A DNA stretch of 64,000 nt from Candidatus Omnitrophota bacterium (GTDB taxonomy: Bacteria > Omnitrophota > Gorgyraeia > 2-01-FULL-45-10): contig JAQUSB010000002.1 of NCBI GenBank assembly GCA_028715345.1, forward strand, positions 675 to 64,674. Direction: 5' to 3'. The position numbers were made by a program, and so were the translations under genes. How positions within the stretch are numbered: position 1 is the stretch's first letter; the number at the start of each line of letters is the position of its first letter. Shown here one piece after another: positions 11,576 to 40,733 of the stretch. Below the pieces are notes generated by a model that worked only from the letters and a program-made list of their open reading frames with translations, was not told the origin of the DNA and made no database searches.

Positions 11576-11581
11576 TAAATT

Positions 11582-13915: not shown

Positions 13916-13935
13916 CAGCGGTAAGTATTTTAGCG

Positions 13936-13955: not shown

Positions 13956-13975
13956 ATAACCGGAAGACTGGACAT

Positions 13976-14024
13976 AGGCGTTCAGATTGGTCATAAGACG
14001 ACCGATTTGAATGCCTATTTTTTT
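13976..14024 (+). terminator. intrinsic terminator with apical GGUC-AUAAGAC-GACC mini-hairpin, 20 nt upstream of gltB start
   Basis: 13-bp stem AGGCGUUCAGAUU / GAUUUGAAUGCCU (three G-U) + U7 run; apex hairpin loop ends GAC like the hexaloops in other leaders. Confidence 0.55.
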
Positions 14025-14044
14025 ATTCAGACAGGTGACTTTTT

Positions 14045-22111: not shown

Positions 22112-22139
22112 TTGACATTTTTGGCTTAAGGGTTATAAT
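22112..22139 (+). promoter_or_regulatory. consensus sigma70 promoter for hppA super-operon
   Basis: TTGACA-16 nt-TATAAT. Confidence 0.55.
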
Positions 22140-22251: not shown

Positions 22252-24576
22252 ATGGTTTATGGATTGACTTTTTTCGAACAGATCGCCATATGGAGCGTTC
22301 TGGGAGTATCTATACTGGGTTTACTGTATGCGCTCTTCCTGCGAAAACAGATATTGCTCGAGGATAAAGGCGACAACAAAATGATAGAGGTATGGAACGC
22401 CATCCGCGAGGGCGCGAACGCTTACCTTAAGAAACAGCTATTTTCCATCCTTCCTTTAATAGGCATACTTACATTCGCGCTATTCTTTTCCGTGTATATA
22501 GTCCCGCCGTCCGAAGAGGCGTTACAGCGCTTCGCCGGCCAGCCGGAGAATACGGTCAGGTTCATCATAGGTATAGGCAGGGCGCTCGCGTTCGTTATGG
22601 GCGCGATATTCTCGCTGCTCGTAGGACAGCTCGGTATGCGCATGGCGGTCCAAGGCAACGTCAGAGTAGCCCAGGCCGCGAAGAGATCGTTCGGGGACGC
22701 CCTCAGGATCGCGTATCGATCGGGCACCATCACAGGTATGCTCACAGACGGCCTCGGGCTTTTCGGAGGCACGATAATCTTCATCATATTCGGGGTCGCA
22801 GCGCCGGACGCGCTGTTAGGGTTCGGTTTCGGCGGAACATTGCTCGCGCTCTTTATGAGGGTGGGCGGCGGCATCTACACCAAGGCAGCGGACGTAGGGG
22901 CGGACCTCGTCGGTAAAGTCGAAGCGGGAATACCCGAGGACGATCCGCGCAACCCCGCAGTGGTCGCGGACTTAGTCGGTGACAATGTCGGCGATTGCGC
23001 CGGGATGGCAGCCGATATTTTCGAATCTTACGAAGTCACAATAGTCTCGGGCCTTATACTCGGGCTCGCGCTCTATCATATAACTCACAGGCTGGAATGG
23101 ATAGTCTATCCGCTTTTAGTCCGCGGCATAGGCGTGCTCTGCTCGATCATCGGCACTTACGCCGTCAAGGGCAGCCCGTCGAAGAGCGGCAACGCGATGA
23201 AAGCGATATTCCACGGCTTTCTCACGTCGGCGGCGATATCGATCGCTTTATTCGGCATTCTCGCATATGTTTACATGAACAAACTGCCGGGCGGCTGGTG
23301 GAGGCCTTTTCTGGCAACGGCTGTCGGAGTAGGTCTTGCGATAGCGATCGACCGCCTTACCGAATATTTCACCGGTACAGAAGGTAAACCGGTGCGCGAG
23401 ATCAGGAAGTCCACAGGCACGGGTTCGGCTACCACTATATTGTCCGGCATCGCGGTAGGATACGAATCGGCCGTCTGGTCGATCATCGTTATCGCTACGA
23501 CGATATTCTCATCCATCGTCATATTCGGCACAATACCCGGTATCGAGGGCGCGGCAAGGGTCACTTATATACTCTACGGCGTCGCGATGACAGGCATAGG
23601 CATGCTGACCCTTACGGGCAACAACGTGGCCATGGATTCGTTCGGCCCGATCGCGGATAACGCGAACGGGATAGGAGAGATGGCCTGGCACGGGAAACAG
23701 GATAAAGACACCAAGGACGCCCGCAAGATCATGGCCGATCTCGACGGCGTAGGCAATACCACAAAAGCGATCACCAAAGGAGTTGCAATAGGCTCGGCGG
23801 TTATCGCGGCTGTGGCGCTGTTCGGTTCATACATGGTCGACGTAAGTAAAGTCCAGGCGGCTTTAGGGATATTGCCGGCCGACCAGTTAAATTCGATAGG
23901 TATACGCGTATCGGTCCCGCAGGTCTTCGTCGGCATGCTGATCGGAGGAGCGATACCGTGGCTATTCTCGGCGTTCAGCATACAGGCTGTGGCGAGAGCC
24001 GCATCCCTTATTGTCCATGAAGTCAGGCGCCAATTCAAGCTCGGCGTCCTCGAAGGCAAAATGAAGCCCGATTATCAGCAGGCAGTATCGATCTCAACGA
24101 CCGCGGCGCAGAAAGAATTGGTAGGGCTTGCGGTCATAAGCATAGTGTCTCCTATAGTAGTAGGTTTAGTCCTCCAGGTCGAAGCACTCGGCGGATTCTT
24201 GGCCGGTATAATCCTGTCAGGCCAACTGCTCGCAGTATTTATGTCGAATGCCGGCGGGGCGTGGGATAACGCTAAAAAGACCATAGAAGACGAAGCCCGC
24301 AGCATAGAAAATAATACCGGTAAAGGATCCGAGCGCCACAAGGCGGCGGTAGTAGGGGATACGGTCGGCGATCCGTTAAAAGATACAGCGGGCCCGGCGC
24401 TCAATCCGATGATAAAAGTAGTCAACCTTGTTTCGGTAATAATCGCACCTATAATAGTGCAATACAATAAACTCGGCATAGGCGGCTGGGTAGTCGTTTC
24501 ATTACTCTGCGCATCTTTGGTCTGGGCAATACTCAAGAGTAAACGCCCGGCACCGGAATTGGCGCCGACAAAGTAA
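22252..24576 (+). CDS. hppA: membrane-bound proton-translocating pyrophosphatase, K+-independent type
   Basis: 774 aa; GGIYTKAADVGADLVGKVE, DNVGDCAGMAADIFESY and GNTTKA (Lys = K+-independent) signatures. Confidence 0.9.
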   Translation: MVYGLTFFEQIAIWSVLGVSILGLLYALFLRKQILLEDKGDNKMIEVWNAIREGANAYLKKQLFSILPLIGILTFALFFSVYIVPPSEEALQRFAGQPENTVRFIIGIGRALAFVMGAIFSLLVGQLGMRMAVQGNVRVAQAAKRSFGDALRIAYRSGTITGMLTDGLGLFGGTIIFIIFGVAAPDALLGFGFGGTLLALFMRVGGGIYTKAADVGADLVGKVEAGIPEDDPRNPAVVADLVGDNVGDCAGMAADIFESYEVTIVSGLILGLALYHITHRLEWIVYPLLVRGIGVLCSIIGTYAVKGSPSKSGNAMKAIFHGFLTSAAISIALFGILAYVYMNKLPGGWWRPFLATAVGVGLAIAIDRLTEYFTGTEGKPVREIRKSTGTGSATTILSGIAVGYESAVWSIIVIATTIFSSIVIFGTIPGIEGAARVTYILYGVAMTGIGMLTLTGNNVAMDSFGPIADNANGIGEMAWHGKQDKDTKDARKIMADLDGVGNTTKAITKGVAIGSAVIAAVALFGSYMVDVSKVQAALGILPADQLNSIGIRVSVPQVFVGMLIGGAIPWLFSAFSIQAVARAASLIVHEVRRQFKLGVLEGKMKPDYQQAVSISTTAAQKELVGLAVISIVSPIVVGLVLQVEALGGFLAGIILSGQLLAVFMSNAGGAWDNAKKTIEDEARSIENNTGKGSERHKAAVVGDTVGDPLKDTAGPALNPMIKVVNLVSVIIAPIIVQYNKLGIGGWVVVSLLCASLVWAILKSKRPAPELAPTK

Positions 24577-24586: not shown

Positions 24587-26032
24587 ATGATCCCGATGGA
24601 AAACAACTGTCTATTAGCCTGTGTTTTCGTCCCTGTCATAGGAGCCTTCGCACTTCCTTTGATAGGGAGGGTATCCGAGCTTGCCAGGAACCTGACGGCT
24701 CTTGCGCTCGTTACGGTATCGCTTGTAACATCACTCTTTCTTGCGCCGGCAGCCATTGCCGGGCATGTGATAAGCGTAAGTTATAGCCTTCCTCTCGGGT
24801 TCAATTTCATCCTTACCGCGGACGCACTCGCCGTATTCATGGCCGCAGCTTCTTCGCTCGTCGGCGCCATAATAGTCCTGTACTCTTTCGGATACATCAG
24901 CCACTACAATAACCGCAATGAATATTACCTGATGGTAACGCTTTTCCTCGGTTCTATGATGGGGCTCGTCTATTCCGGCAACCTCATTTTCATGTATTTA
25001 TTCTGGGAGATCACCGCCATAGCAAGCTGGCGCCTGATAGGATTTTTCCGGGAAAAGGAATACGTCCTGAAAGCGGACAAGGCATTTCTCGTAACGGTCT
25101 TCGGAGCTCTTGTAATGCTTTTGGGCTTCATCTATATCTATCAGGTCACGGGTTCTTTCGATCTTTCGGCGATAAAGGCCGCCTTTAAGAACAACGCAAT
25201 ACCCGATATAGCGGTAGCGTTGATACTCATAGGCATACTATCGAAATCGGCCACTCTGCCGTTCCACACATGGCTGCCGGACGCCGGCGTCGCGCCGTCA
25301 CCGGTCACAGCGCTTCTGCATGCCGCAGTCCTCGTCAAAATAGGCGTATACGTCTTCGCAAGGCTCTTCATAGCTACGTTCACTTTGAGCCAGATATGGC
25401 ATACGGTAGTGCCTGTCATAGCGGGCGTCAGCGCGCTCGTAGCGGCAGGGGCGGCGCTGGTCGAGACGGATATGAAGCGTATCATCGCGTATTCGACCGT
25501 AAGCCAGATAGGATTTATCCTTTTAGGTTTTGCCGTAAGTAACGAAGTGGGGGTAGTAGGGGCGCTTCTTTACATATTGATGCACGGGCTCGCTAAAGGC
25601 GGGCTATTTTTATGCGCAGGCATTGTCGAGCAGAATACAAAGACCAAAGATATAACAAAGATGGGCGGGCTCATCGCTACGATGCCGGTCACGGCCTTTT
25701 CATTCCTTGCGTGCGCGTTATCGGTAATGGGCGTACCGCCGTTCGGCGGTTTCTTCAGCAAATACCTCGTATTCTCGGGCGCGGCGACGAGCGGCAGTAT
25801 TATGATAACGAGTATATTTTTATTCGGTGCCTTCCTGACGCTGATATATCTATTCAGGATATTCAATATGATATTCCTGGGCGATCCGCAAAAACCGCCC
25901 GCAAAAGAGGGTTCAGGCGTAATGGTGCTTTCTGTGGCGATGCTCGCGGTCCTTTCGATAGCAGGCGGGATATTGATCAAATATCCGTCGGATTTTGTCC
26001 AGACGGCGGTAAAACAGATGATGGGAATTTAA
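24587..26032 (+). CDS. group 4 hydrogenase antiporter-like membrane subunit (NuoN/MrpD family) 1
   Basis: 481 aa; ~14 TM, NuoL/M/N-MrpA/D conserved helices (WLPDAGVAPSPVTALLHAA...). Confidence 0.7.
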   Translation: MIPMENNCLLACVFVPVIGAFALPLIGRVSELARNLTALALVTVSLVTSLFLAPAAIAGHVISVSYSLPLGFNFILTADALAVFMAAASSLVGAIIVLYSFGYISHYNNRNEYYLMVTLFLGSMMGLVYSGNLIFMYLFWEITAIASWRLIGFFREKEYVLKADKAFLVTVFGALVMLLGFIYIYQVTGSFDLSAIKAAFKNNAIPDIAVALILIGILSKSATLPFHTWLPDAGVAPSPVTALLHAAVLVKIGVYVFARLFIATFTLSQIWHTVVPVIAGVSALVAAGAALVETDMKRIIAYSTVSQIGFILLGFAVSNEVGVVGALLYILMHGLAKGGLFLCAGIVEQNTKTKDITKMGGLIATMPVTAFSFLACALSVMGVPPFGGFFSKYLVFSGAATSGSIMITSIFLFGAFLTLIYLFRIFNMIFLGDPQKPPAKEGSGVMVLSVAMLAVLSIAGGILIKYPSDFVQTAVKQMMGI

Positions 26033-26033
26033 C

Positions 26034-27866
26034 ATGACGGCTAACGTAATATTTTATCCGATAATAGTCCCGCTCGTAACGGCGCTTGCGCTCTTGGTCA
26101 CGCCTAAAAAGATGAAGTGGGGCAAGGAGATCGTCGCGATAGCCGGGACGGCCTTAAATCTGTTATTGGCCATAGCGCTATTTAAATCGAATATTTATTT
26201 CTCGGCCCCATGGTCGGGCTTCGGTATCGATTTTTCGCTCAAACTGTATCAATTCAGCTCATTCATCATCCTCGCCGCGGCAGGGTTCGCATTCTTAATA
26301 ACTCTGTATTCTACGGCTTCATTATTCAATAAAGATTACGCGAAACCGTTTTATGTTTACCTTGCGCTGTCGCTTTTAATGGTGAACGGCGCCGTCCTGG
26401 CCGACAATCTCGTCCTGATGCTATTCTTCTGGGAAGGCTTACTCGTAACACTATTCGGCATGATCACGATAGGGAATAAGCATGCGTTCAAAACTGCCAC
26501 AAAAGCGTTCATCATAGTAGGCATAAGCGATCTATTTATGATGGTCGGGATAGCGCTCGTGGCGTATCTTGGCGGGACGATAACGATATCGCAAATAAAT
26601 CTGACGACCGCGGGACTGGGAGGGTTGGCATTCATCTTCCTTATAATAGGAGCCATATCGAAGGCCGGATCGATGCCTTTCCATAGCTGGATACCGGACG
26701 CGGCAATAGACGCTCCGCTTCCTTTCATGGCGATACTTCCTGCGTCATTGGAAAAATTGCTCGGCATATACTTTCTGGCGCGCATCTCGCTCGATATGTT
26801 CGAACTGAACGTCCATTCGTGGGCGAGCACAACCTTGATGGTAGTGGGCGCTATAACGATACTTCTTGCCGTAATGATGGCGCTCGTCCAGAAAGATTAC
26901 AAGAGGCTATTGTCATATCACGCGATAAGCCAGGTAGGATATATGATATTGGGCATCGGCACGCTTGTGCCCGTCGGGATCGTGGGCGGTCTATTCCACA
27001 TGATCAACCACGCGATGTATAAGAGCTGCCTATTCCTGACAGGCGGTTCGGTCGAGAAGCAGGCAGGCACAACCGACCTGGCAAAGCTGGGCGGGATCGC
27101 GAAGAGCATGCCCGTCACGTTCATCTGTTTTATAATAGCGGCCGCGTCCATATCGGGCGTGCCGCCTTTCAACGGTTTCTTCTCCAAAGAGCTCGTCTAT
27201 GACGGGGCGCTGGAGCGCGGGATGATATTCTATGTCGCCGCTATATTGGGGTCGTTCCTTACAGCAGCGTCTTTCTTGAAACTCGGCCACGCCGCGTTTT
27301 TAGGCAAAAAGCAGGGTAATGCCGAGGTAAAAGAAGCTCCGATGAGGATGCTGATACCTATGATAACTATCGCGTCGTTGTGCGTACTGTTCGGGCTATG
27401 GAACGCGCTTCCTCTGAACAATCTTATTCAGCCTATACTTGGTAAAAGATTGGAAGGGCATAACTTCTCGGGCCTTCCGACAAATGCGCTATTGGTAATA
27501 GCTACGGTGGTGGTCCTGGCGCTGGCATTATTGAACCATATTTACGGAGTGAAGAAGACAGGTAAGGCGCTGAAAGCGACAGACCATATACGTTACGCGC
27601 CCTTACTCGGGCATCTTTACGACATGGCGGAGAAGAGATTCTTCGACCCTTACAACATAGGCCTGGACATAGTGAATTTTTTCGCGAAGATCGCGGCCTG
27701 GTTCGACAGGGCTATCGACTGGGTCTATAATATATTAGTCGTCAATGCCGCAAACTTGGTCACGGGCCTGATAAAGCGACTGCATACCGGGAATTATGGG
27801 TCATACATAATCTGGTCGCTGGCAAGCGCGGCCGTTATATTAATATTTTTGATAAGAGCCATCTAA
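26034..27866 (+). CDS. group 4 hydrogenase antiporter-like membrane subunit (NuoL/MrpA-like, long form) 2
   Basis: 610 aa; WIPDAAIDAPLPFMAILPAS motif plus C-terminal extension. Confidence 0.7.
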   Translation: MTANVIFYPIIVPLVTALALLVTPKKMKWGKEIVAIAGTALNLLLAIALFKSNIYFSAPWSGFGIDFSLKLYQFSSFIILAAAGFAFLITLYSTASLFNKDYAKPFYVYLALSLLMVNGAVLADNLVLMLFFWEGLLVTLFGMITIGNKHAFKTATKAFIIVGISDLFMMVGIALVAYLGGTITISQINLTTAGLGGLAFIFLIIGAISKAGSMPFHSWIPDAAIDAPLPFMAILPASLEKLLGIYFLARISLDMFELNVHSWASTTLMVVGAITILLAVMMALVQKDYKRLLSYHAISQVGYMILGIGTLVPVGIVGGLFHMINHAMYKSCLFLTGGSVEKQAGTTDLAKLGGIAKSMPVTFICFIIAAASISGVPPFNGFFSKELVYDGALERGMIFYVAAILGSFLTAASFLKLGHAAFLGKKQGNAEVKEAPMRMLIPMITIASLCVLFGLWNALPLNNLIQPILGKRLEGHNFSGLPTNALLVIATVVVLALALLNHIYGVKKTGKALKATDHIRYAPLLGHLYDMAEKRFFDPYNIGLDIVNFFAKIAAWFDRAIDWVYNILVVNAANLVTGLIKRLHTGNYGSYIIWSLASAAVILIFLIRAI

Positions 27867-27884
27867 TATCGAAAGGAAATTTAA

Positions 27885-29324
27885 GTGCCGTCTTTAATGA
27901 TCTTGATACCGCTATTCGGGGTGATAATATTAAACCTCGTATTCGCCGTGAACAGCCGGATGAAAAAGGCCGCGTTCTGGCTTGCGCTGGCAATATTCTC
28001 TCTGCAGGTCGTTGTCGCCGTATTCCACCACCCGGCGCTATGGAACGATTCGCTGGGCCGCATCGATTCGTTCTTAAATGTAAGCTTTTTCGTCGATCAC
28101 CTGAGCTTTATAATGTTCATCTGCATAGGCATGGTATCGATAGCCAGCCTTTTTGTAGCGCGTTACGGAATGAAAGATGAGGACGATATCTTTAAATTCA
28201 TAAACCTGCTCATTATGGCGTCGATAGGGATGAGCGGCATCGTAATGGTAAAAGACATATTCTCGCTTTACGTATTCATGGAAATAACGGCGGTATCGTC
28301 ATTTCTTTTAATAGCGTTCCCCAGGTCCCTGGAATCCCTTGAAGGTTCGTTCAAGTACCTTATCCTTTCGTCTATAGCGACCGTACTGATGCTCACATCC
28401 ATAGGTATATTGTTCCTTGCGGCGGGCGGCACAGACTTTGACGCTATCGCCGCTGCGATAGGGGCATCCTACGAGAACGCGCTTGTGCTTGCGGCGATAG
28501 GGCTGTTTATTTGCGGCCTATTCATAAAAGGCGGGCTCGTCCCGTTCCATGGATGGCTGCCGGACGCGTATACCGCGGCGCCGGCGCCGGTATCGGTGCT
28601 TTTAGCCGGCGTCGTTACGAAATCCGCCGGTATCTACACGATGATACGCATCACAACCTCGCTCCTGCCGCACTACCAGAGCGTAAATAATATTCTCATG
28701 CTGGTCGGGACGATATCCATATTCGCGGGAGCGCTGGCGGCGATAGGCCAGGATAACTTTAAACGCATGCTCGCGTACTCAAGCATAAGCCAGATGGGCT
28801 ATATCATCCTCGGCCTCGGGACAGGCACGATCCTCGGGATCGCCGGCGCGGTATTCCATCTTTTGAATCACTCGATATTTAAATCGCTTCTCTTTGTGAA
28901 TTCAGCCGCTGTGGAAAAAGAGATCGGCACCAGCGACATGAATAGGATGGGCGGGATATCGCAGAAGATGCCTGTGACCGGCACGACTTCGGTCATCGCA
29001 TTCCTTTCAACGTGCGGCATACCGCCGCTGTCCGGTTTCTGGTCAAAGGTAATAATAGTAATAGCGTTGTGGCAGGCAGGCCAATACGCTTACGCCTCGC
29101 TTGCGATAATAGCTAGCATCATAACTCTGGCCTATTTTCTTTCTATGCAGCGCCGGGTATTTTTCGGCAAATTGCGAGCAGGCCTTGAAAATCTTAAGGA
29201 TGCGGAGGGCGGGGTGCTGACGGTGTCGGTGGTTTTAGCGGCGCTTACTATAGGCATAGGCATATTCTTCCCGTTCGTTTTTAACACATTGATACTGCCC
29301 GTAAAGGAAATACTGGTAAGGTAA
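27885..29324 (+). CDS. group 4 hydrogenase antiporter-like membrane subunit (NuoM/MrpD family) 3
   Basis: 479 aa; GTG start after GAAAGGAAAT RBS; WLPDAYTAAPAPVSVLLAGV motif. Confidence 0.7.
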   Translation: MPSLMILIPLFGVIILNLVFAVNSRMKKAAFWLALAIFSLQVVVAVFHHPALWNDSLGRIDSFLNVSFFVDHLSFIMFICIGMVSIASLFVARYGMKDEDDIFKFINLLIMASIGMSGIVMVKDIFSLYVFMEITAVSSFLLIAFPRSLESLEGSFKYLILSSIATVLMLTSIGILFLAAGGTDFDAIAAAIGASYENALVLAAIGLFICGLFIKGGLVPFHGWLPDAYTAAPAPVSVLLAGVVTKSAGIYTMIRITTSLLPHYQSVNNILMLVGTISIFAGALAAIGQDNFKRMLAYSSISQMGYIILGLGTGTILGIAGAVFHLLNHSIFKSLLFVNSAAVEKEIGTSDMNRMGGISQKMPVTGTTSVIAFLSTCGIPPLSGFWSKVIIVIALWQAGQYAYASLAIIASIITLAYFLSMQRRVFFGKLRAGLENLKDAEGGVLTVSVVLAALTIGIGIFFPFVFNTLILPVKEILVR

Positions 29325-29326
29325 AT

Positions 29327-29830
29327 ATGACGATTATTAATATAGACAATGCGCTTTTGATAGTTACGGCCATAGCGGCCATCTGGACCGTAATGGGCAG
29401 GAGCCTCCTGAAAGCGACGATAGGCCTCGCCGTGACAAGCGCGGCGATATCGGTAATTATATTCAGGCTCGAGAGCCCGCTCGCGGCCGTATTCGAGCTT
29501 TCGGTCTGCGCAGGCCTTATAACGGCGGTGTTTGTCAGCGCCATAAGCCTCACAAAACCATTGACGCACAAAGAGATACTGTACGCCTCAAAGGACAGGA
29601 TGAAGCGGTATATTTATCTTCCAGTGATCCTTTTGGTATTAGGCGCGGCTTTGGCATTTGTCAAAATATGGCCGGGGCTGGTCATTGCGGCGCCGGCAGC
29701 GGCCTCACAGCCGGAAGCCCGATCATTACTGTGGGACTTCAGGCGTTTGGATATACTGGGGCAAGTTATAATTTTATTGGCAGGAGCTTTCGGCATAGTG
29801 TTATTATTCGGGGAGAAGAAGAACAAATGA
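29327..29830 (+). CDS. MrpB/MnhB-like membrane subunit (DUF4040 + MnhB-type)
   Basis: 167 aa, 4-5 TM; pattern LAVTSAAISVIIFRLESPLAAVFELSVCAGL typical of MnhB-N/DUF4040. Confidence 0.5.
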   Translation: MTIINIDNALLIVTAIAAIWTVMGRSLLKATIGLAVTSAAISVIIFRLESPLAAVFELSVCAGLITAVFVSAISLTKPLTHKEILYASKDRMKRYIYLPVILLVLGAALAFVKIWPGLVIAAPAAASQPEARSLLWDFRRLDILGQVIILLAGAFGIVLLFGEKKNK

Positions 29831-30117
29831 TCGCCTTCCTTATTCTTTTACTGTTAATATGCGGGGCTTATTGCATAGTCGTCACGCGAAGCATGATACG
29901 CGCCATAATCGGGATAGAACTTTTGATAAAGGCCGTTACGCTTCTTATAATAGCGGCGGGCAATATGACCGGCAGGACCGCGACCGCGCAAAGCCTGGCG
30001 ATCACAATAATCATCATCGAAGTAGTAGTGGCGGCTACGGCTGCCGGCATCGCGTTATGGGTATTCAAACGGACCGGCACGCTGGATGTACGGAATTTAA
30101 GGAATCTCAAAGGTTAA
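29827..30117 (+). CDS. NuoK/MrpC-like membrane subunit
   Basis: 96 aa, 3 TM; ATGA overlap with upstream gene; IIGIELLIKAVTLLIIAAG... NuoK-like. Confidence 0.6.
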   Translation: MIAFLILLLLICGAYCIVVTRSMIRAIIGIELLIKAVTLLIIAAGNMTGRTATAQSLAITIIIIEVVVAATAAGIALWVFKRTGTLDVRNLRNLKG

Positions 30118-30126
30118 GGACGATAA

Positions 30127-30459
30127 ATGGATAATATTTTACTGTCTCCTCCGCTGGCTTTTCTGGTAGTCCTGGCAGCCATGCTGGTATTTTCGAGGCT
30201 TTTATCTGCTCTTGCATGTAAACCGAAAACTCACGGCGAAGGGGAAGGCAAATCGTACGCATGCGGGGAAGAGGCCCCTACGGGTTTGGTCCAGCCCGAT
30301 TACAGCCAGTTCTTTCCGTTCGCGTTCTTCTTCACGCTTTTACACGTATTTACGCTGACTATCGCGACGGTTCCCGCGCTCACAGGCGGATCGTTCATCG
30401 TAGCGGTAATTTATATATTGACCGCGATAACCGGCATGGTAATTCTTTTCAGGAGATAG
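30127..30459 (+). CDS. NuoA/MbhI-like small membrane subunit
   Basis: 110 aa; TM1 then KSYACGEE loop reminiscent of NuoA YECG motif, then 2 TM. Confidence 0.4.
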   Translation: MDNILLSPPLAFLVVLAAMLVFSRLLSALACKPKTHGEGEGKSYACGEEAPTGLVQPDYSQFFPFAFFFTLLHVFTLTIATVPALTGGSFIVAVIYILTAITGMVILFRR

Positions 30460-30462
30460 GAT

Positions 30463-30912
30463 ATGGGTTTGGTCCATAAGATAGTTACATGGTCGAGAAT
30501 AAAATCCCCGTGGATAATACACTTTAACACGGGCGCATGCAATGCCTGCGATATAGAAATAGTCGCGGCGCTCACCCCGCGTTACGATATCGAGCGCTTC
30601 GGTATACAGCTCAAAGGTACACCGCGCCACGCCGATGTGCTCGTCTGCTCTGGCCCGGTGACGAAGCAGATAAAATGCAGGCTGAAGAGGATCTACGACC
30701 AGATGCCGGAGCCGAAATTCGTCGTAGCGGTGGGGACGTGCGCGTGTTCGGGCGGCGTTTTCGACGGCTGTTACAACGTGGAGTCTGGCATTGATAAAGT
30801 GATACCCGTTTCCGCGTATATACCCGGATGCCCCGCGAGCCCCAAGGCGATAATAGACGGCGTAGTGAAATTACTGACCGGCCTCGAAGCGAAGGAAGCG
30901 AAAGCGAAATGA
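30463..30912 (+). CDS. [NiFe] hydrogenase small subunit (NuoB/MbhJ family)
   Basis: 149 aa; CNACDIE ... GTCACSGG proximal Fe-S cluster Cys pattern. Confidence 0.8.
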   Translation: MGLVHKIVTWSRIKSPWIIHFNTGACNACDIEIVAALTPRYDIERFGIQLKGTPRHADVLVCSGPVTKQIKCRLKRIYDQMPEPKFVVAVGTCACSGGVFDGCYNVESGIDKVIPVSAYIPGCPASPKAIIDGVVKLLTGLEAKEAKAK

Positions 30913-31385
30913 CGAAAACAAAAGAAGAGAGCCTGCAGGGCGAGTTGATAAAAAATTTCCGGTTTCTCGACGGTAAAATAACCGTGAGCCGGCCGCGGCG
31001 CATGTCCGCGGAAGTGCCCCCGGCGAATTTCCGGGAAGTTTTAGAGTATGCTGTCGATAAATTGTCGTTTACCATGCTATGCGCCATAACCGGCCTGGAC
31101 GAAACGGCAAACCTGGCATTTATATATCACATAGCCAGGGAAGATGGTATCATATTGAATATAAAAGTGGCGGTCGACAGAAATAACCCTGCCATCGAAA
31201 CCATAACCGGTCTTTTCCCCGGCGCGGATGTTTATGAACGCGAGCTGGTCGATCTTCTCGGCGCGAAAGTCGAGGGATTGGCTAAAGGGTCGAGATACCC
31301 CCTCACGGACGATTGGCCGGCCGGCGAATATCCTCTTCGGAAAGACTGGAAGAAGAACGACACAAAAGAGGTGACTAATGCATAA
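30909..31385 (+). CDS. NuoC/MbhK-like subunit
   Basis: 158 aa; ATGA overlap; NuoC-type 30-kDa fold signature (ERELVDLLG...). Confidence 0.7.
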   Translation: MTKTKEESLQGELIKNFRFLDGKITVSRPRRMSAEVPPANFREVLEYAVDKLSFTMLCAITGLDETANLAFIYHIAREDGIILNIKVAVDRNNPAIETITGLFPGADVYERELVDLLGAKVEGLAKGSRYPLTDDWPAGEYPLRKDWKKNDTKEVTNA

Positions 31386-32601
31386 AGTGGTTATCCCTAT
31401 AGGACCGCAGCATCCGGCGCTGAAAGAGCCCGAAAGCTTCAGCGTTACTTTAAGCGGCGAAAAGATAATGAAGTTCTCGGCAAGGCTCGGCTACAACCAC
31501 CGGGGTATAGAAAAGGCCTGTGAAGAGAGGACCTACGTGCAGGACGTCTATCTGACCGAGCGTATCTGCGGCATCTGCTCGCATTCACATTCCACATGTT
31601 TCACCCAGGCGGTGGAAGAGATCGCCAAAGTGGACGTGCCGAAACGCGCCCTCTATATACGCACGCTCGTCGGAGAACTCGAAAGGATACACAGCCATCT
31701 ATTATGGCTCGGCGTCGCCGGCCACGAAGTAGGCTTCGATACTCTTCTTATGTATACCTGGCGCGACCGCGAAGTGGTCATGGATATACTTGCCATGCTC
31801 ACGGGAAACCGCGTCAACTACGGCATAAATATGATAGGCGGGGTCAGGCGCGACGTGAGCGCAGAACAAGCCAAAGCGATACTGAAGGCAATGGATACCC
31901 TCGAGGAACGCACAAAATATTACATCCAGGTCGCCACGCAGGAGACTACGCTTATCCAGAGGCTGTCCGGGGTGGGGATACTGTCGCATAAGGACGCGCT
32001 TAAGCTGGGCGCTGTCGGGCCCACTGCACGCGCCTCCGGCGTAAACAGGGACGTCAGACGGGACGATCCGTATGCCGCTTATTCGGAAGTGAAGTTCAAG
32101 GTCATTACAGACGATCACAACGACGTTTACGGACGGACGCTTGTGCGCATGGGCGAACTTTTGGAATCCTACAGCATAATACGCCAGATAGTAAAAAAGA
32201 TGCCCGAGGGCCCCATAATCACAAAAGTCCCGCGGAAGATCCCCGCCGGAGAAGCGACTTCGAGATACGAAGCGCCGCGCGGCGAAGATATGCATTACGT
32301 GAAGGCGAACGGCACCGAAAAGCCCGAAAGAGTAAAGGTGCGCGCCCCGACCCTGGCAAATATACAGACCGTCGCGAAGATGCTCGAAGACAGACAGCTT
32401 GCGGACCTGCCGATAGTCATAGCCGCCATAGATCCTTGCTTCTCCTGCACGGACCGGCTGACAGGCATACGGCAAACCGGAAAACGTAAAAAGAACGTGC
32501 TGAAGTGGGAAGAGCTGCATACTTACAGTATCACTTTCTACAAAGAACACGGGATAGATTTTACCGACCTGAACAAAAAAATGGCAAAGGCGCTGAAATG
32601 A
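31378..32601 (+). CDS. group 4 [NiFe] hydrogenase large (catalytic) subunit with C-terminal extension
   Basis: 407 aa; both Ni-Fe ligand motifs present: RICGICSHSH (L1) and DPCFSCTDR (L2); ~45 aa follow L2, consistent with HycI-type processing. Confidence 0.85.
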   Translation: MHKVVIPIGPQHPALKEPESFSVTLSGEKIMKFSARLGYNHRGIEKACEERTYVQDVYLTERICGICSHSHSTCFTQAVEEIAKVDVPKRALYIRTLVGELERIHSHLLWLGVAGHEVGFDTLLMYTWRDREVVMDILAMLTGNRVNYGINMIGGVRRDVSAEQAKAILKAMDTLEERTKYYIQVATQETTLIQRLSGVGILSHKDALKLGAVGPTARASGVNRDVRRDDPYAAYSEVKFKVITDDHNDVYGRTLVRMGELLESYSIIRQIVKKMPEGPIITKVPRKIPAGEATSRYEAPRGEDMHYVKANGTEKPERVKVRAPTLANIQTVAKMLEDRQLADLPIVIAAIDPCFSCTDRLTGIRQTGKRKKNVLKWEELHTYSITFYKEHGIDFTDLNKKMAKALK

Positions 32602-33536
32602 TGGGATTGTTTTACATGCTGGTCTTCCCGGGATTCATATTCTTGAGCGTATTCGGCATGGCAGCCGAATATTGCGACAGGAAGCTTTACGCGAGACTGC
32701 AGAACAGGGTAGGCCCTCCGTGGTTTCAGCCTTTGGCGGACTTCATAAAACTGGTGTCCAAGGAAGAGATAATACCCGAGGAAGCGAACCCTTCGATGTT
32801 CAAGATCATGCCCGTACTCGCCCTGACCGCGACGATCACAGCATTTTTCTACATACCGGCCTGGGGTTATAAAGCGTTATATTCTTTCAACGGCGACCTT
32901 ATAGTCGTTCTGTATCTTCTGACAATACCTACGCTGACATTCTTCCTCGGAGGGTGGTATTCGACTTCACTGTATTCGAAGATCGGCGCGGTAAGAGCGC
33001 TCACCCAGTTATTCGCTTACGAAGTCCCGCTCCTCATGAGTATCCTGGCCCCGGCGCTTCTGGCAAATTCCTGGTCGCTGAGCGAGATCGCAAAATTTTA
33101 CGCCCAGCACCCGGTATATTGGTTCTTCAACCTGCTTGGCTTCGCCATATCGATGATATCGCTGCTCGGCAAACTCGAAAAAGTCCCGTTCGACATACCC
33201 GAAGCGGAGACGGAGATAGTGGGCGGCACTTTTACCGAATACGGCGGGAAACTGTTGGGGCTATTCAGGCTCGGCATAGACATAGAGGCGATCGTGGGCT
33301 CCGCGCTTTTAGCGGCCGTATTCCTGCCGTTCGGCCTGGGATTACCGCCGGTAGCGGGATTCCTACTGTTCGTCCTTAAGGTTATGGGCGTCATCTGCAC
33401 GTTATCGATACTGCGAACGATCTTCGCGCGCTTACGCATAGACCAGATGATGGCTTTCTGCTGGAAGGTCCTGGCGCCCCTGGCTTTTGTGCAGTTATTT
33501 ATCGATCTCATATTAAAATGGATACCGCTCAAATGA
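32598..33536 (+). CDS. NuoH/MbhM/HyfC-like membrane anchor subunit
   Basis: ATG 32598 (ATGA overlap with large subunit); 8 TM; RVGPP-type N-terminus (LQNRVGPPW). Confidence 0.75.
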   Translation: MMGLFYMLVFPGFIFLSVFGMAAEYCDRKLYARLQNRVGPPWFQPLADFIKLVSKEEIIPEEANPSMFKIMPVLALTATITAFFYIPAWGYKALYSFNGDLIVVLYLLTIPTLTFFLGGWYSTSLYSKIGAVRALTQLFAYEVPLLMSILAPALLANSWSLSEIAKFYAQHPVYWFFNLLGFAISMISLLGKLEKVPFDIPEAETEIVGGTFTEYGGKLLGLFRLGIDIEAIVGSALLAAVFLPFGLGLPPVAGFLLFVLKVMGVICTLSILRTIFARLRIDQMMAFCWKVLAPLAFVQLFIDLILKWIPLK

Positions 33537-33910
33537 TCCGCCCCGGGAAAATGTTAAAACAGGTGCTCGATTCGATCTTTAGGAAACCCGCTACAACGAA
33601 TTATCCCTTCACAAAGGCCGTAATGCCGGATAAATTCAGGGGAAAGATAATATTTCACCCGGAAAAGTGCATAGGCTGTAAGATGTGCATGCGCGATTGC
33701 CCGGCGGGCGCCATCCAGATCCGGAAGATAGGAGATAAAAAATTCGAATGCGAGATCGATCTGGGCAAATGTATTTATTGCGCCCAGTGCGTAGACTCCT
33801 GCTTGAAGAAAGCGCTCGAAACGACAAAAGAATTCGAGCTCGCGGCCCTGGAAAGGAATAAGCTTAAGGTAACTTACCATGCCGACACTGGAGAAGTATC
33901 TAAAGAATAG
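33518..33910 (+). CDS. 2x[4Fe-4S] ferredoxin subunit (NuoI/MbhN-like)
   Basis: CIGCKMCMRDCP and CIYCAQCVDSC motifs. Confidence 0.75.
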   Translation: MDTAQMIRPGKMLKQVLDSIFRKPATTNYPFTKAVMPDKFRGKIIFHPEKCIGCKMCMRDCPAGAIQIRKIGDKKFECEIDLGKCIYCAQCVDSCLKKALETTKEFELAALERNKLKVTYHADTGEVSKE

Positions 33911-34388
33911 GTTCGCGAATGCTAAAAAGATCGCTCTTCTTGCTATCGGCTCGGAGCTCAGGGGAGATGACGCGGCCGGCCTCCTTGTCGCTGATAACGT
34001 AAAGAAACTGCTCAAAACCTCAAACCGTAGATTCAAGATATTCAACGGCGCGACGGCGCCGGAAAACCTCACGGGCGACATCAAACGGTTCAACCCATCC
34101 CATATACTTTTACTCGACAGCGTAGACTTTAAAGATAAACCCGGTTCGATCATAGTCTTAAACCCCCGCGACATAGGCGACGGGGTGTCATTCTCTACCC
34201 ATAAGATGCCGGCCAAAATCCTGATGCGCTATTTTTATGAGTCTATCGATTGCGATCCCATATTGATAGGCATCCAGCCGCTTTCAATAAATTTCGGAGC
34301 AAAACCGTCCGGGGCTGTGGTCAGCTCGGCCAAAGAGGCGGCGGCCGCGATCGTAAAGTCATTGAAGGCTTTGCCGAAGCAAGGATGA
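33879..34388 (+). CDS. hycI: hydrogenase maturation endopeptidase (HycI/HyaD family)
   Basis: 169 aa; ALLAIGSELRGDDAAGLLVA metal-binding motif. Confidence 0.7.
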   Translation: MPTLEKYLKNRFANAKKIALLAIGSELRGDDAAGLLVADNVKKLLKTSNRRFKIFNGATAPENLTGDIKRFNPSHILLLDSVDFKDKPGSIIVLNPRDIGDGVSFSTHKMPAKILMRYFYESIDCDPILIGIQPLSINFGAKPSGAVVSSAKEAAAAIVKSLKALPKQG

Positions 34389-34391: not shown

Positions 34392-34634
34392 TTGACAAAA
34401 GCTTATAAGTGGATTAAAATAGGTGGATTATTATCATTTATCCCGATAGCCATGGCCGTGGGCCCTCTGGCGGGGTATTTTGCCGCAGATTACCTTGAAA
34501 AGAAGTTCAATTTTCCCGGTTTCACTTCGGCTATATTCATAATAATAGGTTTTACCGCGAGCACCATAGAGACCGTGAAGATAATACGCCTGGCGCTCAA
34601 GACAGAGAAAGAGATGGATGGAAAACACGTTTAG
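34392..34634 (+). CDS. AtpZ-like small membrane protein preceding ATP synthase genes
   Basis: 80 aa, two TM helices, Gly-rich, basic C-terminus. Confidence 0.4.
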   Translation: MTKAYKWIKIGGLLSFIPIAMAVGPLAGYFAADYLEKKFNFPGFTSAIFIIIGFTASTIETVKIIRLALKTEKEMDGKHV

Positions 34635-34893
34635 GTGGGTCTTAGGGTTCGGTATAGGCGCGGCGTGGTCGTGCGCAAATTTATATTTTACGACAAATAT
34701 ATTAAAGATAAGCGTACTCAAAAAAGAGCGGGCAAAATTAACGGCGCTTCTGCTTCTTAAATTCCCGGTCCTTTACCTGGCAGGCCTTCTTATATTACTC
34801 TCGAAAGTCTTCCCGGTCGCGAGCCTTTTGACCGGACTTACGATCGTTATAATAATAGCGGGGATACGAAGATTATGGCCGAAACAGGCGTAG
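34618..34893 (+). CDS. ATP synthase protein I-like (AtpI/AtpR family)
   Basis: 91 aa, 3 TM, position directly before atpB. Confidence 0.4.
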   Translation: MENTFRWVLGFGIGAAWSCANLYFTTNILKISVLKKERAKLTALLLLKFPVLYLAGLLILLSKVFPVASLLTGLTIVIIIAGIRRLWPKQA

Positions 34894-35642
34894 CAAAAAC
34901 TCCGGAACTCCCGAATCTGGTAACGATCCTGGCGGAGAAATTCCACGGCAGCCCGTTCGCGTCATTTTTGATCGCGTGGGAAAACGTGATATTCTCTTTG
35001 ATAATAATCGCCGCTATAGCGATCACGGCATACGCGGCATCCCGCAAAACAGCGCTCATACCCGGCCGCCTGCAGAGCCTGTTCGAAATGTTCGTCGGCG
35101 GCGTGGACGATTTCGTTTGCGGCATCATAGGGCACGACGGCAGAAAATACGTTCCTTTCATAGGCACGCTATTCATATATATTTTATGCATGAACTTGTC
35201 TGGGCTCGTCCCGTTCATAAAAGCGCCTTCGGCGAGCTGGTCGACGACGCTGGCGCTCGCGATATGCGTATCGGTTTATACGCTATACGCGGGTTTTTCG
35301 TCGATGGGATTCGTGGGTTTTGTCGACCACCTGGCGGGCAGGCCGCGCGGAATAGTCGCTTTCCTGGTCTTTATACCGGTAATGATGTTTTTCCTGGAAA
35401 TGGTTTCTCTTTTATTCGTACGGCCCTTAAGCCTGTCACTTCGTCTTCGAAGCAATATATGGGGGGACGATATGCTTCTTGCCGTATTCGCGAGTTTTGG
35501 GCTGAAAGGGCTGGCGCTCCTTATATTCAATTCGATAATGGCGATAGTGGTTTCTATAGTGCAGACGCTCGTATTTTGTCTTTTGACGACGATATATTTT
35601 ACGCTGATATTGAGTCACGAAGAAGAAAGTACGGCTAAATAA
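34875..35642 (+). CDS. atpB: F-type ATP synthase subunit a
   Basis: 255 aa; LSLRLRSNIWGDDML matches conserved a-subunit Arg helix. Confidence 0.85.
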   Translation: MAETGVAKTPELPNLVTILAEKFHGSPFASFLIAWENVIFSLIIIAAIAITAYAASRKTALIPGRLQSLFEMFVGGVDDFVCGIIGHDGRKYVPFIGTLFIYILCMNLSGLVPFIKAPSASWSTTLALAICVSVYTLYAGFSSMGFVGFVDHLAGRPRGIVAFLVFIPVMMFFLEMVSLLFVRPLSLSLRLRSNIWGDDMLLAVFASFGLKGLALLIFNSIMAIVVSIVQTLVFCLLTTIYFTLILSHEEESTAK

Positions 35643-35654
35643 AAAGGGGGTATT

Positions 35655-35885
35655 ATGGATTTCAGATCGATGCTTGCAATAGGATTGCCGCTCGGGCTCG
35701 GTATCGCGGCTTTCGGATCGGCAATGGGGCTGGGAAAAGCGGTAGCGGCGGCAATGGACGCCACGGGACGCCAGCCTGAAGCTGCGACGAAGATATTGAT
35801 CAATATGGCCACCGGATGCGCGTTCATAGAAGCGCTGACCATATACGCGCTCGTATTCGTTTTCGGCCTTGCCGGAAAGATCTAA
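35655..35885 (+). CDS. atpE: F-type ATP synthase subunit c (H+-type site)
   Basis: 76 aa; GRQPE loop; ion-site helix AFIEALTIYALV (E-A-L-T, no Ser/Thr pair, helix-1 Gln absent). Confidence 0.9.
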   Translation: MDFRSMLAIGLPLGLGIAAFGSAMGLGKAVAAAMDATGRQPEAATKILINMATGCAFIEALTIYALVFVFGLAGKI

Positions 35886-35906
35886 AACTCCGCTGACAGG
35901 TAAAAA

Positions 35907-36401
35907 ATGGAACTACTGAAACTCTTAAGCGCAAATGAAATAGTCGCGCAGGTAATAACATTCCTGCTCTTGCTGTTTTTGATGAAACGGTTCGCGTGGA
36001 AACCGTTCCTCAAGACGCTCGATACCAGAAAAGAGCGCATCGCTTCGGAGCTCAAAAGGATAGAGGCCGCTAAAGCCGAGGTGAATGGCCTTAAAACCGA
36101 TTACGAATCTAGGCTCGCTTCCATCGAGGCCGAAGCAAAAAACAGGATCCGCGCCGCTGTCGAAGAGGGCAGGAAGTCTGCCGAAGATATCCGCCGGCTC
36201 GCCAGGGAAGACGGCGAGAGGATATTCGCAAAAGCCCAGGAGAGCATAAAGGCGGAGGTAGCGAAGGCCGAGGAAGCGCTTAAGGATAAGATAGTCAACC
36301 TGACGATAGACGTGGCATCCAAGGTAGTGCAGGAACGGCTGACCGAAGAAGACGACAGGGCAATAGTGGAAACGTTCATTAAAGAGATGGAAAAGAAATA
36401 A
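35907..36401 (+). CDS. atpF: F-type ATP synthase subunit b
   Basis: 164 aa; one TM then long charged helix. Confidence 0.8.
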   Translation: MELLKLLSANEIVAQVITFLLLLFLMKRFAWKPFLKTLDTRKERIASELKRIEAAKAEVNGLKTDYESRLASIEAEAKNRIRAAVEEGRKSAEDIRRLAREDGERIFAKAQESIKAEVAKAEEALKDKIVNLTIDVASKVVQERLTEEDDRAIVETFIKEMEKK

Positions 36402-36955
36402 TGGATCGCGACATACTGGCCAAACGATACGGCGACGCGTACATGGCCTTCGTAAAAGAAGGGTGCGGGCTGGAGAAAGGCGTTACCGACCTGCATAACG
36501 TGAAACGCATACTGCTCGACAACCCGGAGCTCAACGGATTTTTGCTGACGCCCGGCATAGATAAGCAGGAGAAGTTCCAGGTGCTCGAGAATGTCGTCCG
36601 GAACGGGTTCTCGGAAGAAGTCATATATTTCCTGCGGCTTCTCATAGATAAAGGGCGGTTCGATAAATTCAGCGATATGGCCAATTACGTCAGGATCATT
36701 TATTCCCACGGCATCGAAGCCGACGCGCTCCTTAAGGTAAGTTATCCTCTCGGAACGGATACGATCAGGCGGATCAAAAGCGGAATAGAAAATAAGTTAA
36801 ATAAAAAATTACACTTGTATATAGAGCTGGATTCGGACCTTCTCGGCGGTGTTTACCTGAAGATCGAAAATATACTTATCGACGGATCGGTAAGAAAACG
36901 CCTTGAAGATATGAGATCGAAACTTTTGGCAATGAAGGTGGTATATGGCAATTAG
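36401..36955 (+). CDS. atpH: F-type ATP synthase subunit delta (OSCP)
   Basis: 184 aa; position b-delta-alpha; its presence argues standard F-type, not N-type. Confidence 0.75.
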
Positions 36956-38465: not shown

Positions 38466-39316
38466 TACAAAGTTTCAGGCAGTTAAAAGACAGGATAAAG
38501 TCGATCGAAAGCACGCGCAAGATAACGCGCGCCATGGAAATGGTCTCTGCCGCGAAACTTAATAAGGTAAAAAGCGCGTTTTTTTCTTCGAAGAATTATT
38601 TCGCGCGTACGGAACGTATATTATTCGATCTGTTATCCGACCTCGAACCCGCGGACCATCCGCTGCTTGAAAAAAGGAAGGCCAAGAACGCGATAGCTCT
38701 GGCGGTCATCGCGTCCGACACCGGTTTATGCAGCACGTATAACAACAACGTCATAAAGCTCGCCAAAGATTTTGCCGACCGGTTCGATAGAGAGCGCGTA
38801 AAAATAATAGCCGTCGGGAAAGAGGCTTTTTCGTATTTCAAAAAAGAAAATTACGGGATAAATAATTTTTACTTGGGCATGCGGGGTAAGTTTTCCGAAG
38901 AGATCGCCGCAGACATGACCGGCACGCTTGTAAAATTGTTCACAGGCGGCGAGGCTGATGAAATTTATATTGCCTATACTCATTTCAGCCCCAACCTGCG
39001 CCACAAGCCTGTCGTAGAAAAATTCCTGGATATCGAATACGCTCATAAGGAAAAACGGCACTACATCCTGGAACCGGATAAAGAAGCCATATTAAATGAA
39101 CTTATATCGAAATATCTGGCGGATAAGATACGGGTAATATTACTCGATTCGTTCACAACCGAGCATTCCGCGCGCATGCTCGCTATGAAGCTCGCTACGG
39201 ATAATGCCAACGAGCTCATAGATACATTAACGCTTTTGAAGAACAAGGCCAGGCAGGCGGCTATAACAAAGGAAGTCCTTGAAATAGCCAATTCCGCCGA
39301 GGCCCTTAGAGGTTAA
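38462..39316 (+). CDS. atpG: F-type ATP synthase subunit gamma
   Basis: 284 aa; [34 protein letters not shown]-terminus. Confidence 0.9.
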
Positions 39317-40732
<1,416 letters not shown>

Positions 40733-40733
40733 C

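Follow-up and report, generated by a model that had tools for sequence, protein, structure and literature searches.

A twelve-gene cluster for a predicted group 4 [NiFe] hydrogenase

We analysed a 64,000-nucleotide stretch of DNA from a Candidatus Omnitrophota bacterium (GenBank assembly GCA_028715345.1, contig JAQUSB010000002.1; hereafter the window) that carries, at positions 24587-34388 on the + strand, eleven structural genes and a HycI-type protease gene of a predicted group 4 [NiFe] hydrogenase. We consider it probable that the product is a ferredoxin-coupled, ion-translocating enzyme of eleven subunits, matured by HycI and running forward towards H2 evolution. The cluster begins with the start of the first antiporter-like gene at 24587 and ends with the hycI stop codon at 34388, the exact limits that a first-pass annotation, made from the letters alone, had given it. 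All twelve genes lie on the + strand and are spaced by at most 18 nt or overlap slightly. Their order is L-like, L, M/N-like, J, K, A, B, C, D, H, I, hycI. That this order is unlike other operons had been noted before; it differs from hyf in a direct comparison, and the established mbhA-N order differs from it as well. Relative to the earlier gene calls, the NuoC start is corrected to 30909 and the NuoH start to 32598, each of which overlaps the preceding stop codon (ATGA). The genes are as follows, with lengths in amino acids (aa).

24587..26032, +, antiporter-like subunit 1, 481 aa, NuoL/MrpA/HyfD type without C-terminal extension (Pfam Proton_antipo_M)
26034..27866, +, antiporter-like subunit 2, 610 aa, full-length NuoL/MbsH' type (Pfam Proton_antipo_M, NuoL models)
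27885..29324, +, antiporter-like subunit 3, 479 aa, MrpD/NuoM/NuoN type (Pfam Proton_antipo_M)
29327..29830, +, putative NuoJ equivalent, 167 aa, like fused MbhD+MbhE or the MrpA C-terminal domain (weak Oxidored_q3, MbhD)
29827..30117, +, NuoK/MrpC/MbhG-like subunit, 96 aa (Pfam Oxidored_q2)
30127..30459, +, NuoA/ND3-like subunit, 110 aa (weak PDB and profile matches; no Pfam or NCBIfam match)
30463..30912, +, small subunit, NuoB/MbhJ/HycG-like, 149 aa (Pfam Oxidored_q6, NCBIfam NuoB)
30909..31385, +, NuoC/MbhK-like subunit, 158 aa (Pfam Complex1_30kDa)
31378..32601, +, [NiFe] large subunit, 407 aa (Pfam Complex1_49kDa and NiFeSe_Hases; L1 and L2 motifs)
32598..33536, +, NuoH/MbhM/HycD-like anchor, 312 aa (Pfam NADHdh)
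33518..33910, +, NuoI/MbhN/HycF-like subunit with two [4Fe-4S] sites, 130 aa (Pfam Fer4 families)
33879..34388, +, HycI-type maturation endopeptidase, 169 aa (Pfam HycI, TIGR00142)

When one genome per species was scanned, more than 541 stretches turned out to hold relatives, and the best 80 loci were analysed. Their large subunits are 71-91% identical to the window protein. By tblastn with the window proteins, each locus of enough length has the same 12-gene order, and wherever a related locus extends far enough beyond the I gene, hycI comes next. Synteny over 80 species genomes, together with the invariant motifs described below, rules out a chance pattern; the operon at these coordinates is real.

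The large subunit retains the Ni-Fe cysteines and a putative processing tail

The large subunit carries four cysteines in two pairs, L1 being RICGICSHSH (Cys64, Cys67) and L2 DPCFSCTDR (Cys354, Cys357). At these four positions E. coli NuoCD has E, G, V and D; a complex I NuoD is without Ni-Fe ligands. L1 reads R[IV]CGICS[HY]xH in 80 of 80 large subunits, and DPCFSCTDR is invariant among them. The best matches in the PDB are MbhL (6cfw_L, E = 5.9e-101, 342 bits) and HycE (1.6e-78, 268 bits), followed by Nqo4 (223 bits). An identical protein from a Candidatus Omnitrophica metagenome-assembled genome (MAG) is deposited at NCBI as 'nickel-dependent hydrogenase large subunit'.

Beyond L2 the protein continues for 47 residues, close to the ~45 first estimated, and the alignment with HycE runs on through this C-terminal extension, which is homologous to the HycE tail. 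HycI cuts this tail off E. coli HycE. In most of the 80 homologues the tail measures 43-49 aa and contains the conserved core W..L..YSI.W....G.DF..LN. The last gene of the cluster encodes a HycI homologue (Pfam HycI 8.8e-13; TIGR00142 hycI 1.6e-30; TIGR00072 84.9 bits, above cutoff) whose D31, D80 and H108 align with the metal-binding D16, D62 and H90 of E. coli HycI. A related Omnitrophota MAG (locus L046), whose large subunit has 74% identity, carries hypA, B, F, C, D and E at 1.4-7.6 kb downstream of hycI; this links the family with the usual route of Ni-Fe maturation.

We then placed the large subunit among its neighbours in sequence space. An exhaustive HMMER search of 1.84 billion cluster representatives (50% identity) gave 1003 matches at E<=1e-30. 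Among the nearest 150 representatives, 103 have all four cysteine ligands (CCCC), and complex-I-type residues at the ligand positions occur solely at <=38% identity. A neighbour-joining tree of 126 sequences puts the window protein with its own cluster representative, apart from MbhL, from HycE/HyfG and from the NuoCD-like outgroup; the tree is rough, star-like and without support values, and shows separateness from those lineages and nothing more. The first-pass annotation had named clustering with Nuo/Fpo lineages as the outcome to look for against a hydrogenase. What we found are cysteine-bearing neighbours and a position apart from NuoCD, and on these comparisons the predicted large subunit groups with hydrogenases, not with NuoD/FpoD.

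These results bear on the reading that the cluster encodes a complex-I-like or Ehr-like oxidoreductase that happens to have kept its cysteines and has quinone or some other compound as its acceptor. With 352 bits, the NuoD model NF004739 of NCBIfam falls just short of its 360-bit cutoff, the NuoH-, NuoA- and NuoL-like subunits have complex-I-like affinities, and IMG names many homologues NADH-quinone oxidoreductase subunits. We nevertheless regard a non-hydrogenase as extremely unlikely, given four Ni-Fe cysteines within L1 and L2 motifs kept across 80 species, a dedicated HycI protease with a HycE-like tail as its predicted substrate, the hyp operon beside the cluster in L046, and the cysteine-bearing neighbourhood. 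The earlier judgement of a true hydrogenase and not a NuoD relic, made on the two cysteine pairs, holds on this wider footing.

Two observations stand beside these. One homologue, P0137, shares 45% identity with the large subunit; of the four Ni-Fe cysteines just one is left (CGHG), and a 47-residue C-terminal extension is still there. The protein may be an Ehr-like relic that kept its tail. In L046 (11105-18626), a flavodoxin-like gene on the opposite strand directly follows hycI, and the complete hyp set after it is interrupted by a gene for a 23S rRNA intervening-sequence protein.

Electron-transfer subunits and the membrane arm

The remaining soluble subunits and their membrane anchor are those expected of group 4. 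The small subunit matches Pfam Oxidored_q6 (5.7e-32) and, above cutoff with 161 bits, the NuoB family of NCBIfam, shares 43% identity with HycG, and has in its translation the four cysteines for one [4Fe-4S] cluster and no Tat signal. Pfam Complex1_30kDa identifies the NuoC-like subunit (7.4e-23), with weak NCBIfam matches to FpoC and NuoC. The NuoH-like anchor (Pfam NADHdh 6.4e-79; NCBIfam NuoH 235 bits) scores higher against E. coli NuoH (129 bits) than against HycD (95 bits). The NuoI-like subunit matches Fer4 in Pfam and, in NCBIfam, the NuoI family and the iron-sulfur subunit of formate hydrogenlyase (FHL); with two CxxCxxCxxxCP-type motifs in its translation, it is likely the ferredoxin-facing point of electron entry or exit. 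The group 4 subunit set is complete, NuoB-, NuoC-, NuoI- and NuoH-like proteins being encoded together with the antiporter-like subunits.

Three large antiporter-like subunits lead the cluster. Subunit 1 matches Proton_antipo_M (1.9e-74) and, weakly, Proton_antipo_N, with NuoL, MrpA and HyfD as top NCBIfam models; it is most similar to HyfD (194 bits), and its E141, K220, H333/K337 and K392 align with the NuoL charge chain. NuoL models cover residues 4-607 of subunit 2, and MbsH' (6u8y_X) aligns over residues 11-604 to its own 9-614. This protein bears E134, K210, H322/H326/K330 and K385, and its D166 is the equivalent of NuoL D178, a NuoL-specific Asp. By hydropathy, transmembrane helix (TM) 15 spans 477-507 and TM16 588-610, with a non-TM segment of ~80 residues (508-587) between them, the layout of the NuoL lateral helix. 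Subunit 3 (Proton_antipo_M 8.5e-71; top NCBIfam models MrpD, NuoM and NuoN) has E133, K215, H325/H329/K333 and K388. The TM5 Glu, TM7 Lys, TM11 His/Lys and TM12 Lys are intact in three of the three.

The small membrane proteins are more divergent. The 167-aa J protein matches Pfam Oxidored_q3 (1e-5) and MbhD (4e-5), both below threshold. A profile of its family matches MbsD (3e-9) and MbhD (3e-7) over the N-terminal half and NuoJ weakly over the whole length (0.02), and hhalign gave 27% with a weak score. Most J homologues have precomputed PF00499 and/or PF13244 assignments and are named subunit J in IMG. A structural model with five TM helices is of low confidence (predicted local distance difference test score, pLDDT, 65.3); the MrpA C-terminus, MbsD, MbhD and NuoJ/ND6 head its Foldseek matches in the PDB, none of them significant. 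The ATG of the NuoK-like gene overlaps the J stop codon, and its product (Oxidored_q2 1e-14; NCBIfam NuoK 1.4e-8) aligns its TM2 Glu E31 with NuoK E36, while its TM3 Glu E64 lies one helical turn from E72.

The 110-aa A protein has no match in the Pfam or NCBIfam libraries. In the PDB, single-sequence and profile searches match it solely to NdhC/ND3/NuoA chains, over the full length at weak E values of 0.003-0.2, and hhalign against E. coli NuoA gives 72% probability. Homologues carry the IMG name subunit A, two of them with PF00507. Its AlphaFold model (pLDDT 69.5, low confidence) has three helices and a long TM1-2 loop that holds an invariant Y-x-C-G-E motif; Foldseek against the PDB found nothing significant, with NdhC on top. 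Nine of the eleven complex I subunit types are clear, and NuoA and NuoJ are reached through consistent but weak matches.

MrpE/F/G (MbhA-C) and MbhF are absent from the cluster and, by Pfam, from the scanned open reading frames (ORFs) of the window, and the abutting genes leave no room for them. The predicted enzyme shares all eleven of its subunit types with a minimal complex I and is without the sodium module that defines Mbh. An arm richer than that of Ech had been foreseen, and is borne out by three antiporter-like subunits with intact charge chains plus NuoJ-, NuoK- and NuoA-like proteins, with no MrpE/F/G. From the MrpB/MrpC/NuoA-like trio proposed at the same time, the NuoK/MrpC-like and NuoA-like members stand, and the 167-aa 'MrpB-like' protein is better described as NuoJ-like or MbhD+E-like.

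Flanking ion pumps and the coupling ion

The cluster lies between two other machines of the membrane gradient, preceded by a promoter-like site.

22112..22139, +, promoter-like site TTGACA-16-TATAAT, 12/12 (consensus scan)
22252..24576, +, membrane pyrophosphatase, a neighbour outside the enzyme (Pfam H_PPase 5e-237)
34392..41003, +, F-type ATP synthase operon, a neighbour (translations; Pfam ATP-synt_A and ATPase_gene1; NCBIfam subunit c)

The pyrophosphatase gene (NCBIfam NF001952, 961 bits) ends 10 bp upstream of the cluster and adjoins it in 21 related loci. The ATP synthase operon begins 3 bp past hycI, in the order AtpZ/I-like, a, c, b, delta, alpha, gamma, beta, epsilon; two small AtpZ/AtpI-like ORFs (34392-34634 and 34618-34893) precede atpB, and the operon lies directly downstream of the cluster in ~16 related loci. 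The entire pyrophosphatase-hydrogenase-ATP synthase arrangement is found in the closest relatives (L001, L002, L003, L008 and L023). Since the gaps are tiny and the same neighbours recur in relatives, the hydrogenase is probably co-transcribed with the pyrophosphatase and the ATP synthase as one ion-gradient block. A HycI-type gene had been said to close the cluster. It is the last hydrogenase gene, but with the ATP synthase 3 bp on it is probably not the end of the transcription unit. Within the 152-bp gap upstream of the pyrophosphatase gene, the perfect sigma-70 consensus at 22112..22139 is a suggestive candidate promoter for the whole block; in the promoter and terminator scan of the region, total counts were at chance level.

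Both neighbours carry signatures that relate to the coupling ion. The pyrophosphatase contains GNTTKAITKG, which by the K/T signature we take to mark the K+-independent, H+-pumping type. The c subunit (35655-35885) contains RQPE...FIEALTIY, a sequence without the Ser/Thr of Na+-binding c rings. NCBIfam calls the pyrophosphatase 'sodium-translocating', a blanket name that it gives to all its models.

These signatures enter the case of a strict Mbh/Mrp-type enzyme, in which proton reduction drives secondary Na+ export through an Mrp module as in the membrane-bound hydrogenase (MBH) of P. furiosus (group 4d, 6CFW). MbhL is the closest solved relative of the large subunit, the J, K, L, M, N hydrogenase module is common to both, MBH has counterparts of the MbhD-like and MbhG-like small membrane subunits, and ferredoxin is the presumed donor in both. 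The match of the J protein's N-terminal half to MbhD and MbsD and the 'sodium-translocating' name of the adjacent pyrophosphatase point the same way, as do published labels: Omnitrophota hydrogenases have been reported as 'group 4g, Mrp-linked' (PMC8542988), and Elusimicrobia versions have been called 'Mbh-Mrp type' (10.1101/765248). MBH, however, has a single antiporter-like subunit (MbhH) against three Proton_antipo_M proteins here, another gene order, and a Na+ module (MbhA-C plus MbhF, homologous to MrpE, F, G and B) of which the cluster and the scanned window ORFs hold no member by Pfam. In place of MbhI the cluster has a lateral-helix NuoL-like subunit and the 110-aa protein, which matches NuoA/ND3 and not MbhI. 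Together with the c-subunit and pyrophosphatase motifs as we read them, these differences make Mrp-type Na+ export improbable. A full complex I set without an Mrp sodium module also makes the labels 'Mrp-linked' and 'Mbh-Mrp type' misleading.

Comparison with group 4 hydrogenases and complex I

Homologues have been classed as group 4g and presumed ferredoxin-dependent (PMC10066038, PMC8542988, PMC11257099), and Ca. Velamenicoccus archaeovorus has been reported to have a 4g membrane-bound hydrogenase (PMC10066038). One of our loci, L047, comes from this organism, with a large subunit 72% identical to that of the window and the same 12-gene order. Assuming that L047 is its reported 4g enzyme, the family would belong to HydDB group 4g, a loose and polyphyletic group (PMC13582414).

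The nearest described architecture is Hfo, an Fpo-like [NiFe] hydrogenase of Bathyarchaeia (4g-6, PMC7886697). Like the present cluster, it combines homologues of NuoA, B, C, D, H, I, J, K, L, M and N with Ni-Fe L1 and L2 motifs on the D subunit, and is without MbhABCF and without the NuoEFG/FpoF input module; it too is uncharacterised and presumed to be ferredoxin-linked and ion-coupled. Hfo is archaeal and follows the Fpo/Nuo gene order A-B-C-D-H-I-J-K-L-M-N, whereas here the antiporter-like genes come first, followed by J-K-A-B-C-D-H-I, and hycI lies inside the cluster. Set against the published description of Hfo, the J protein here is nearer to MbhD/MbsD than to NuoJ, and two of the three pumps are NuoL/MrpA-like.

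The membrane-bound sulfane reductase (MBS) of P. furiosus (6U8Y) resembles the cluster in having more than one antiporter-like subunit, in MbsH', which aligns over its full length to the 610-aa subunit, and in MbsD, the nearest relative of the J protein's N-terminal half. It differs in that MbsL is without Ni-Fe ligands and reduces polysulfide, in keeping an MrpEFG-like module, and in having no NuoA-like subunit.

E. coli Hyf (hydrogenase 4, FHL-2, group 4a) shares with the cluster three antiporter-like subunits, a tail of the HycE/HyfG type and, as predicted here, HycI-type processing. These likenesses, with subunit 1 nearest to HyfD, are what could recommend a formate- or CO-coupled H2-evolving complex of the FHL/Hyf or Coo type whose dehydrogenase is encoded elsewhere. 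Yet Hyf has a fused NuoC-large subunit, HyfG (555 aa), and HycE is likewise fused, while C and D are separate genes here; Hyf also has HyfA and couples to formate dehydrogenase, is without NuoA- and NuoJ-like subunits, and is ordered hyfA-J. FdhF, HycB/HyfA, CooS and CooF genes were not found in the window or among the conserved neighbours, and in the rough tree the HycE/HyfG clade does not include the large subunit. We give coupling to formate or CO hardly any credence.

With 11-subunit complex I, NDH-1 and Fpo-like enzymes that have no N-module (PMC3144371) the cluster has in common the eleven subunit types, the NuoL lateral helix, the NuoA TM1-2 loop motif and the charge chains. In those enzymes, whose acceptor is quinone or methanophenazine, the C-terminal cysteine pair is gone; the present cluster keeps the Ni-Fe site, the predicted cleavable tail and a protease gene.

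Strict Mbh identity, FHL/Coo coupling and the Ehr/complex I reading were each tried and rejected.

Proposed mechanism and direction

In the enzyme that we propose, the large subunit, the NuoB-like protein with one [4Fe-4S] cluster, the NuoC-like subunit and the NuoI-like protein with two [4Fe-4S] clusters would assemble into a cytoplasmic module on the NuoH anchor. Genes for formate dehydrogenase, CO dehydrogenase and NuoEFG are absent from the cluster, from the window and from the conserved neighbours, so that ferredoxin is the partner to assume by default, as for Mbh and Ech. Reduced ferredoxin from fermentation would pass electrons through the NuoI- and NuoB-type clusters to the Ni-Fe site, where protons would be reduced to H2 and the free energy used to drive protons across the membrane. 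Redox chemistry at the NuoD/NuoB/NuoH interface would be coupled to ion movement along a NuoH/A/J/K path, and ions would also move through the three antiporter-like subunits, held together by the NuoL-type lateral helix. The large-subunit precursor would receive its Ni-Fe centre from Hyp proteins encoded elsewhere, after which HycI would remove the 47-residue tail. The enzyme could probably also run in reverse, with membrane potential powering the transfer of electrons from H2 to ferredoxin.

Several points weigh against this reading. The NuoA and NuoJ assignments, although consistent, are weakly scored. No hyp genes lie in the 64-kb window: Pfam detected none in the ORFs >=100 aa beyond the cluster, and E. 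coli HypA-E as tblastn queries gave no match over the window at E<=1e-3, in agreement with the first-pass annotation. Given the 'sodium-translocating' NCBIfam name of the pyrophosphatase, H+ coupling is not secure. Electron transfer from ferredoxin to protons yields little energy, and with so small a ferredoxin/H2 span four pump sites look excessive for forward operation; they fit reverse operation at least as well. Finally, 4g members were biochemically uncharacterised as of 2021 (PMC7886697) and likewise in 2024 (PMC11257099); work on T. kivui Ech2, from a different 4g lineage, is cited in a paper of 2026 (PMC13582414).

The energetic point leads to a rival that concerns the same enzyme, with reverse operation as its physiological role: a potential maintained by ATP hydrolysis or the pyrophosphatase would drive H2-dependent reduction of ferredoxin for the Wood-Ljungdahl pathway or anabolism. 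Three pumps and a NuoH/A/J/K path would imply a high ion-to-electron ratio, suiting an uphill reaction, and the cluster is wedged between a gradient-linked pyrophosphatase and an ATP synthase. Such a role is known for Eha, Ehb and Ech in methanogens. It has also been proposed for archaeal Hfo (PMC7886697), and related Omnitrophota of the families FEN-1320 and CAIMPC01 (compare L003 and L008) reportedly have partial Wood-Ljungdahl pathways (PMC10066038). On the other side, no Wood-Ljungdahl genes lie within the window, and published annotations assume H2 evolution for redox balance (PMC8542988, PMC10066038). An enzyme that is probably reversible makes this a question of physiology, not of identity. 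We consider a mainly reverse role rather unlikely, and keep to ferredoxin-driven H2 evolution as the probable function.

Relation to the proposed ancestor of complex I

In the proposal of Moparthi & Hagerhall (2011; PMC3144371), complex I and membrane hydrogenases descend from an 11-subunit Ni-Fe enzyme; they found no example still extant. The cluster matches the architecture that they put forward. Loh et al. (2021; PMC7886697) described Hfo of Bathyarchaeia as the first such extant enzyme, which the present cluster parallels. A literature search that omitted most subscription journals turned up no paper in which the bacterial family is presented as a complex-I-like hydrogenase of 11 subunits. 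We put forward, tentatively and with less confidence than the enzymatic assignment, that this family is a bacterial, widespread counterpart of the hypothetical ancestor, combining complex I architecture and a working Ni-Fe site and, in this lineage, joined in a single transcription unit to a pyrophosphatase and an ATP synthase that both work with H+. If this holds, the family could be used to study how a pump with four sites drives, or is driven by, the tiny ferredoxin/H2 span, and would reveal whether the layout of complex I is older than the loss of the Ni-Fe site.

The family is widespread and already catalogued, and current ideas are not overturned; its value is as a defined target for structural and biochemical work. 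Group 4g is common in uncultivated anaerobes, and the present lineage is biochemically unstudied. What we add is that the Omnitrophota/Planctomycetota/Elusimicrobiota type is a tight 12-gene unit with the full complex I subunit set. The features that seem under-appreciated are this subunit set, the absence of a sodium module, the 12-gene conservation across phyla and the three-part gene block. The pyrophosphatase-hydrogenase-ATP synthase block further suggests that H2 metabolism is central to membrane potential in the very small Omnitrophota cells.

Distribution and further genes of the region

By database label, the 80 loci come from Omnitrophota (42), Planctomycetota (25), Margulisiibacteriota (3), Elusimicrobiota (3), Kiritimatiellae, Spirochaetota, Deltaproteobacteria, Myxococcales and the 'Patescibacteria group' (1 each, the last being L065), with 2 unclassified. 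Many 'Planctomycetes'-labelled loci, several of them 'Planctomycetia' binchicken MAGs, are as close to the window proteins as Omnitrophota loci are. The odd labels (L065 and the Planctomycetes loci) may reflect mis-binning, mislabelling or lateral transfer.

Other genes recur beside the cluster. In the window, 20111-22099 encodes a 662-aa permease with an AA_permease_2 N-terminal domain and a ~200-aa C-terminal region without family match; homologues adjoin the hydrogenase cluster in L003, L015, L048, L065 and L076. An ExbB/MotA-like and ExbD-like pair flanks the cluster in 11 related loci (for example L034, 13552-14649) and a P-type ATPase in 7, both judged by sequence alone.

Farther off, 56459-57286 and 57341-58762 encode an NfnAB/SudAB-like pair, an FAD/NAD-binding Fe-S subunit and a GltD-like subunit; this is a possible ferredoxin:NADP-linked oxidoreductase that could share the hydrogenase's ferredoxin pool. 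The phosphofructokinase at 47896-49008 belongs to the 'PFK_mixed' subfamily (TIGR02483), which includes pyrophosphate-dependent enzymes, and, together with the membrane pyrophosphatase, may bear on an energy economy built on pyrophosphate. Nitrogen assimilation genes occupy 6027-20006 (GAF-ANTAR regulator, NAD synthase, porin, AmtB, PII, type III glutamine synthetase, GltB and GltD), and a second GAF-ANTAR regulator lies with glutamate dehydrogenase at 58806-61074.

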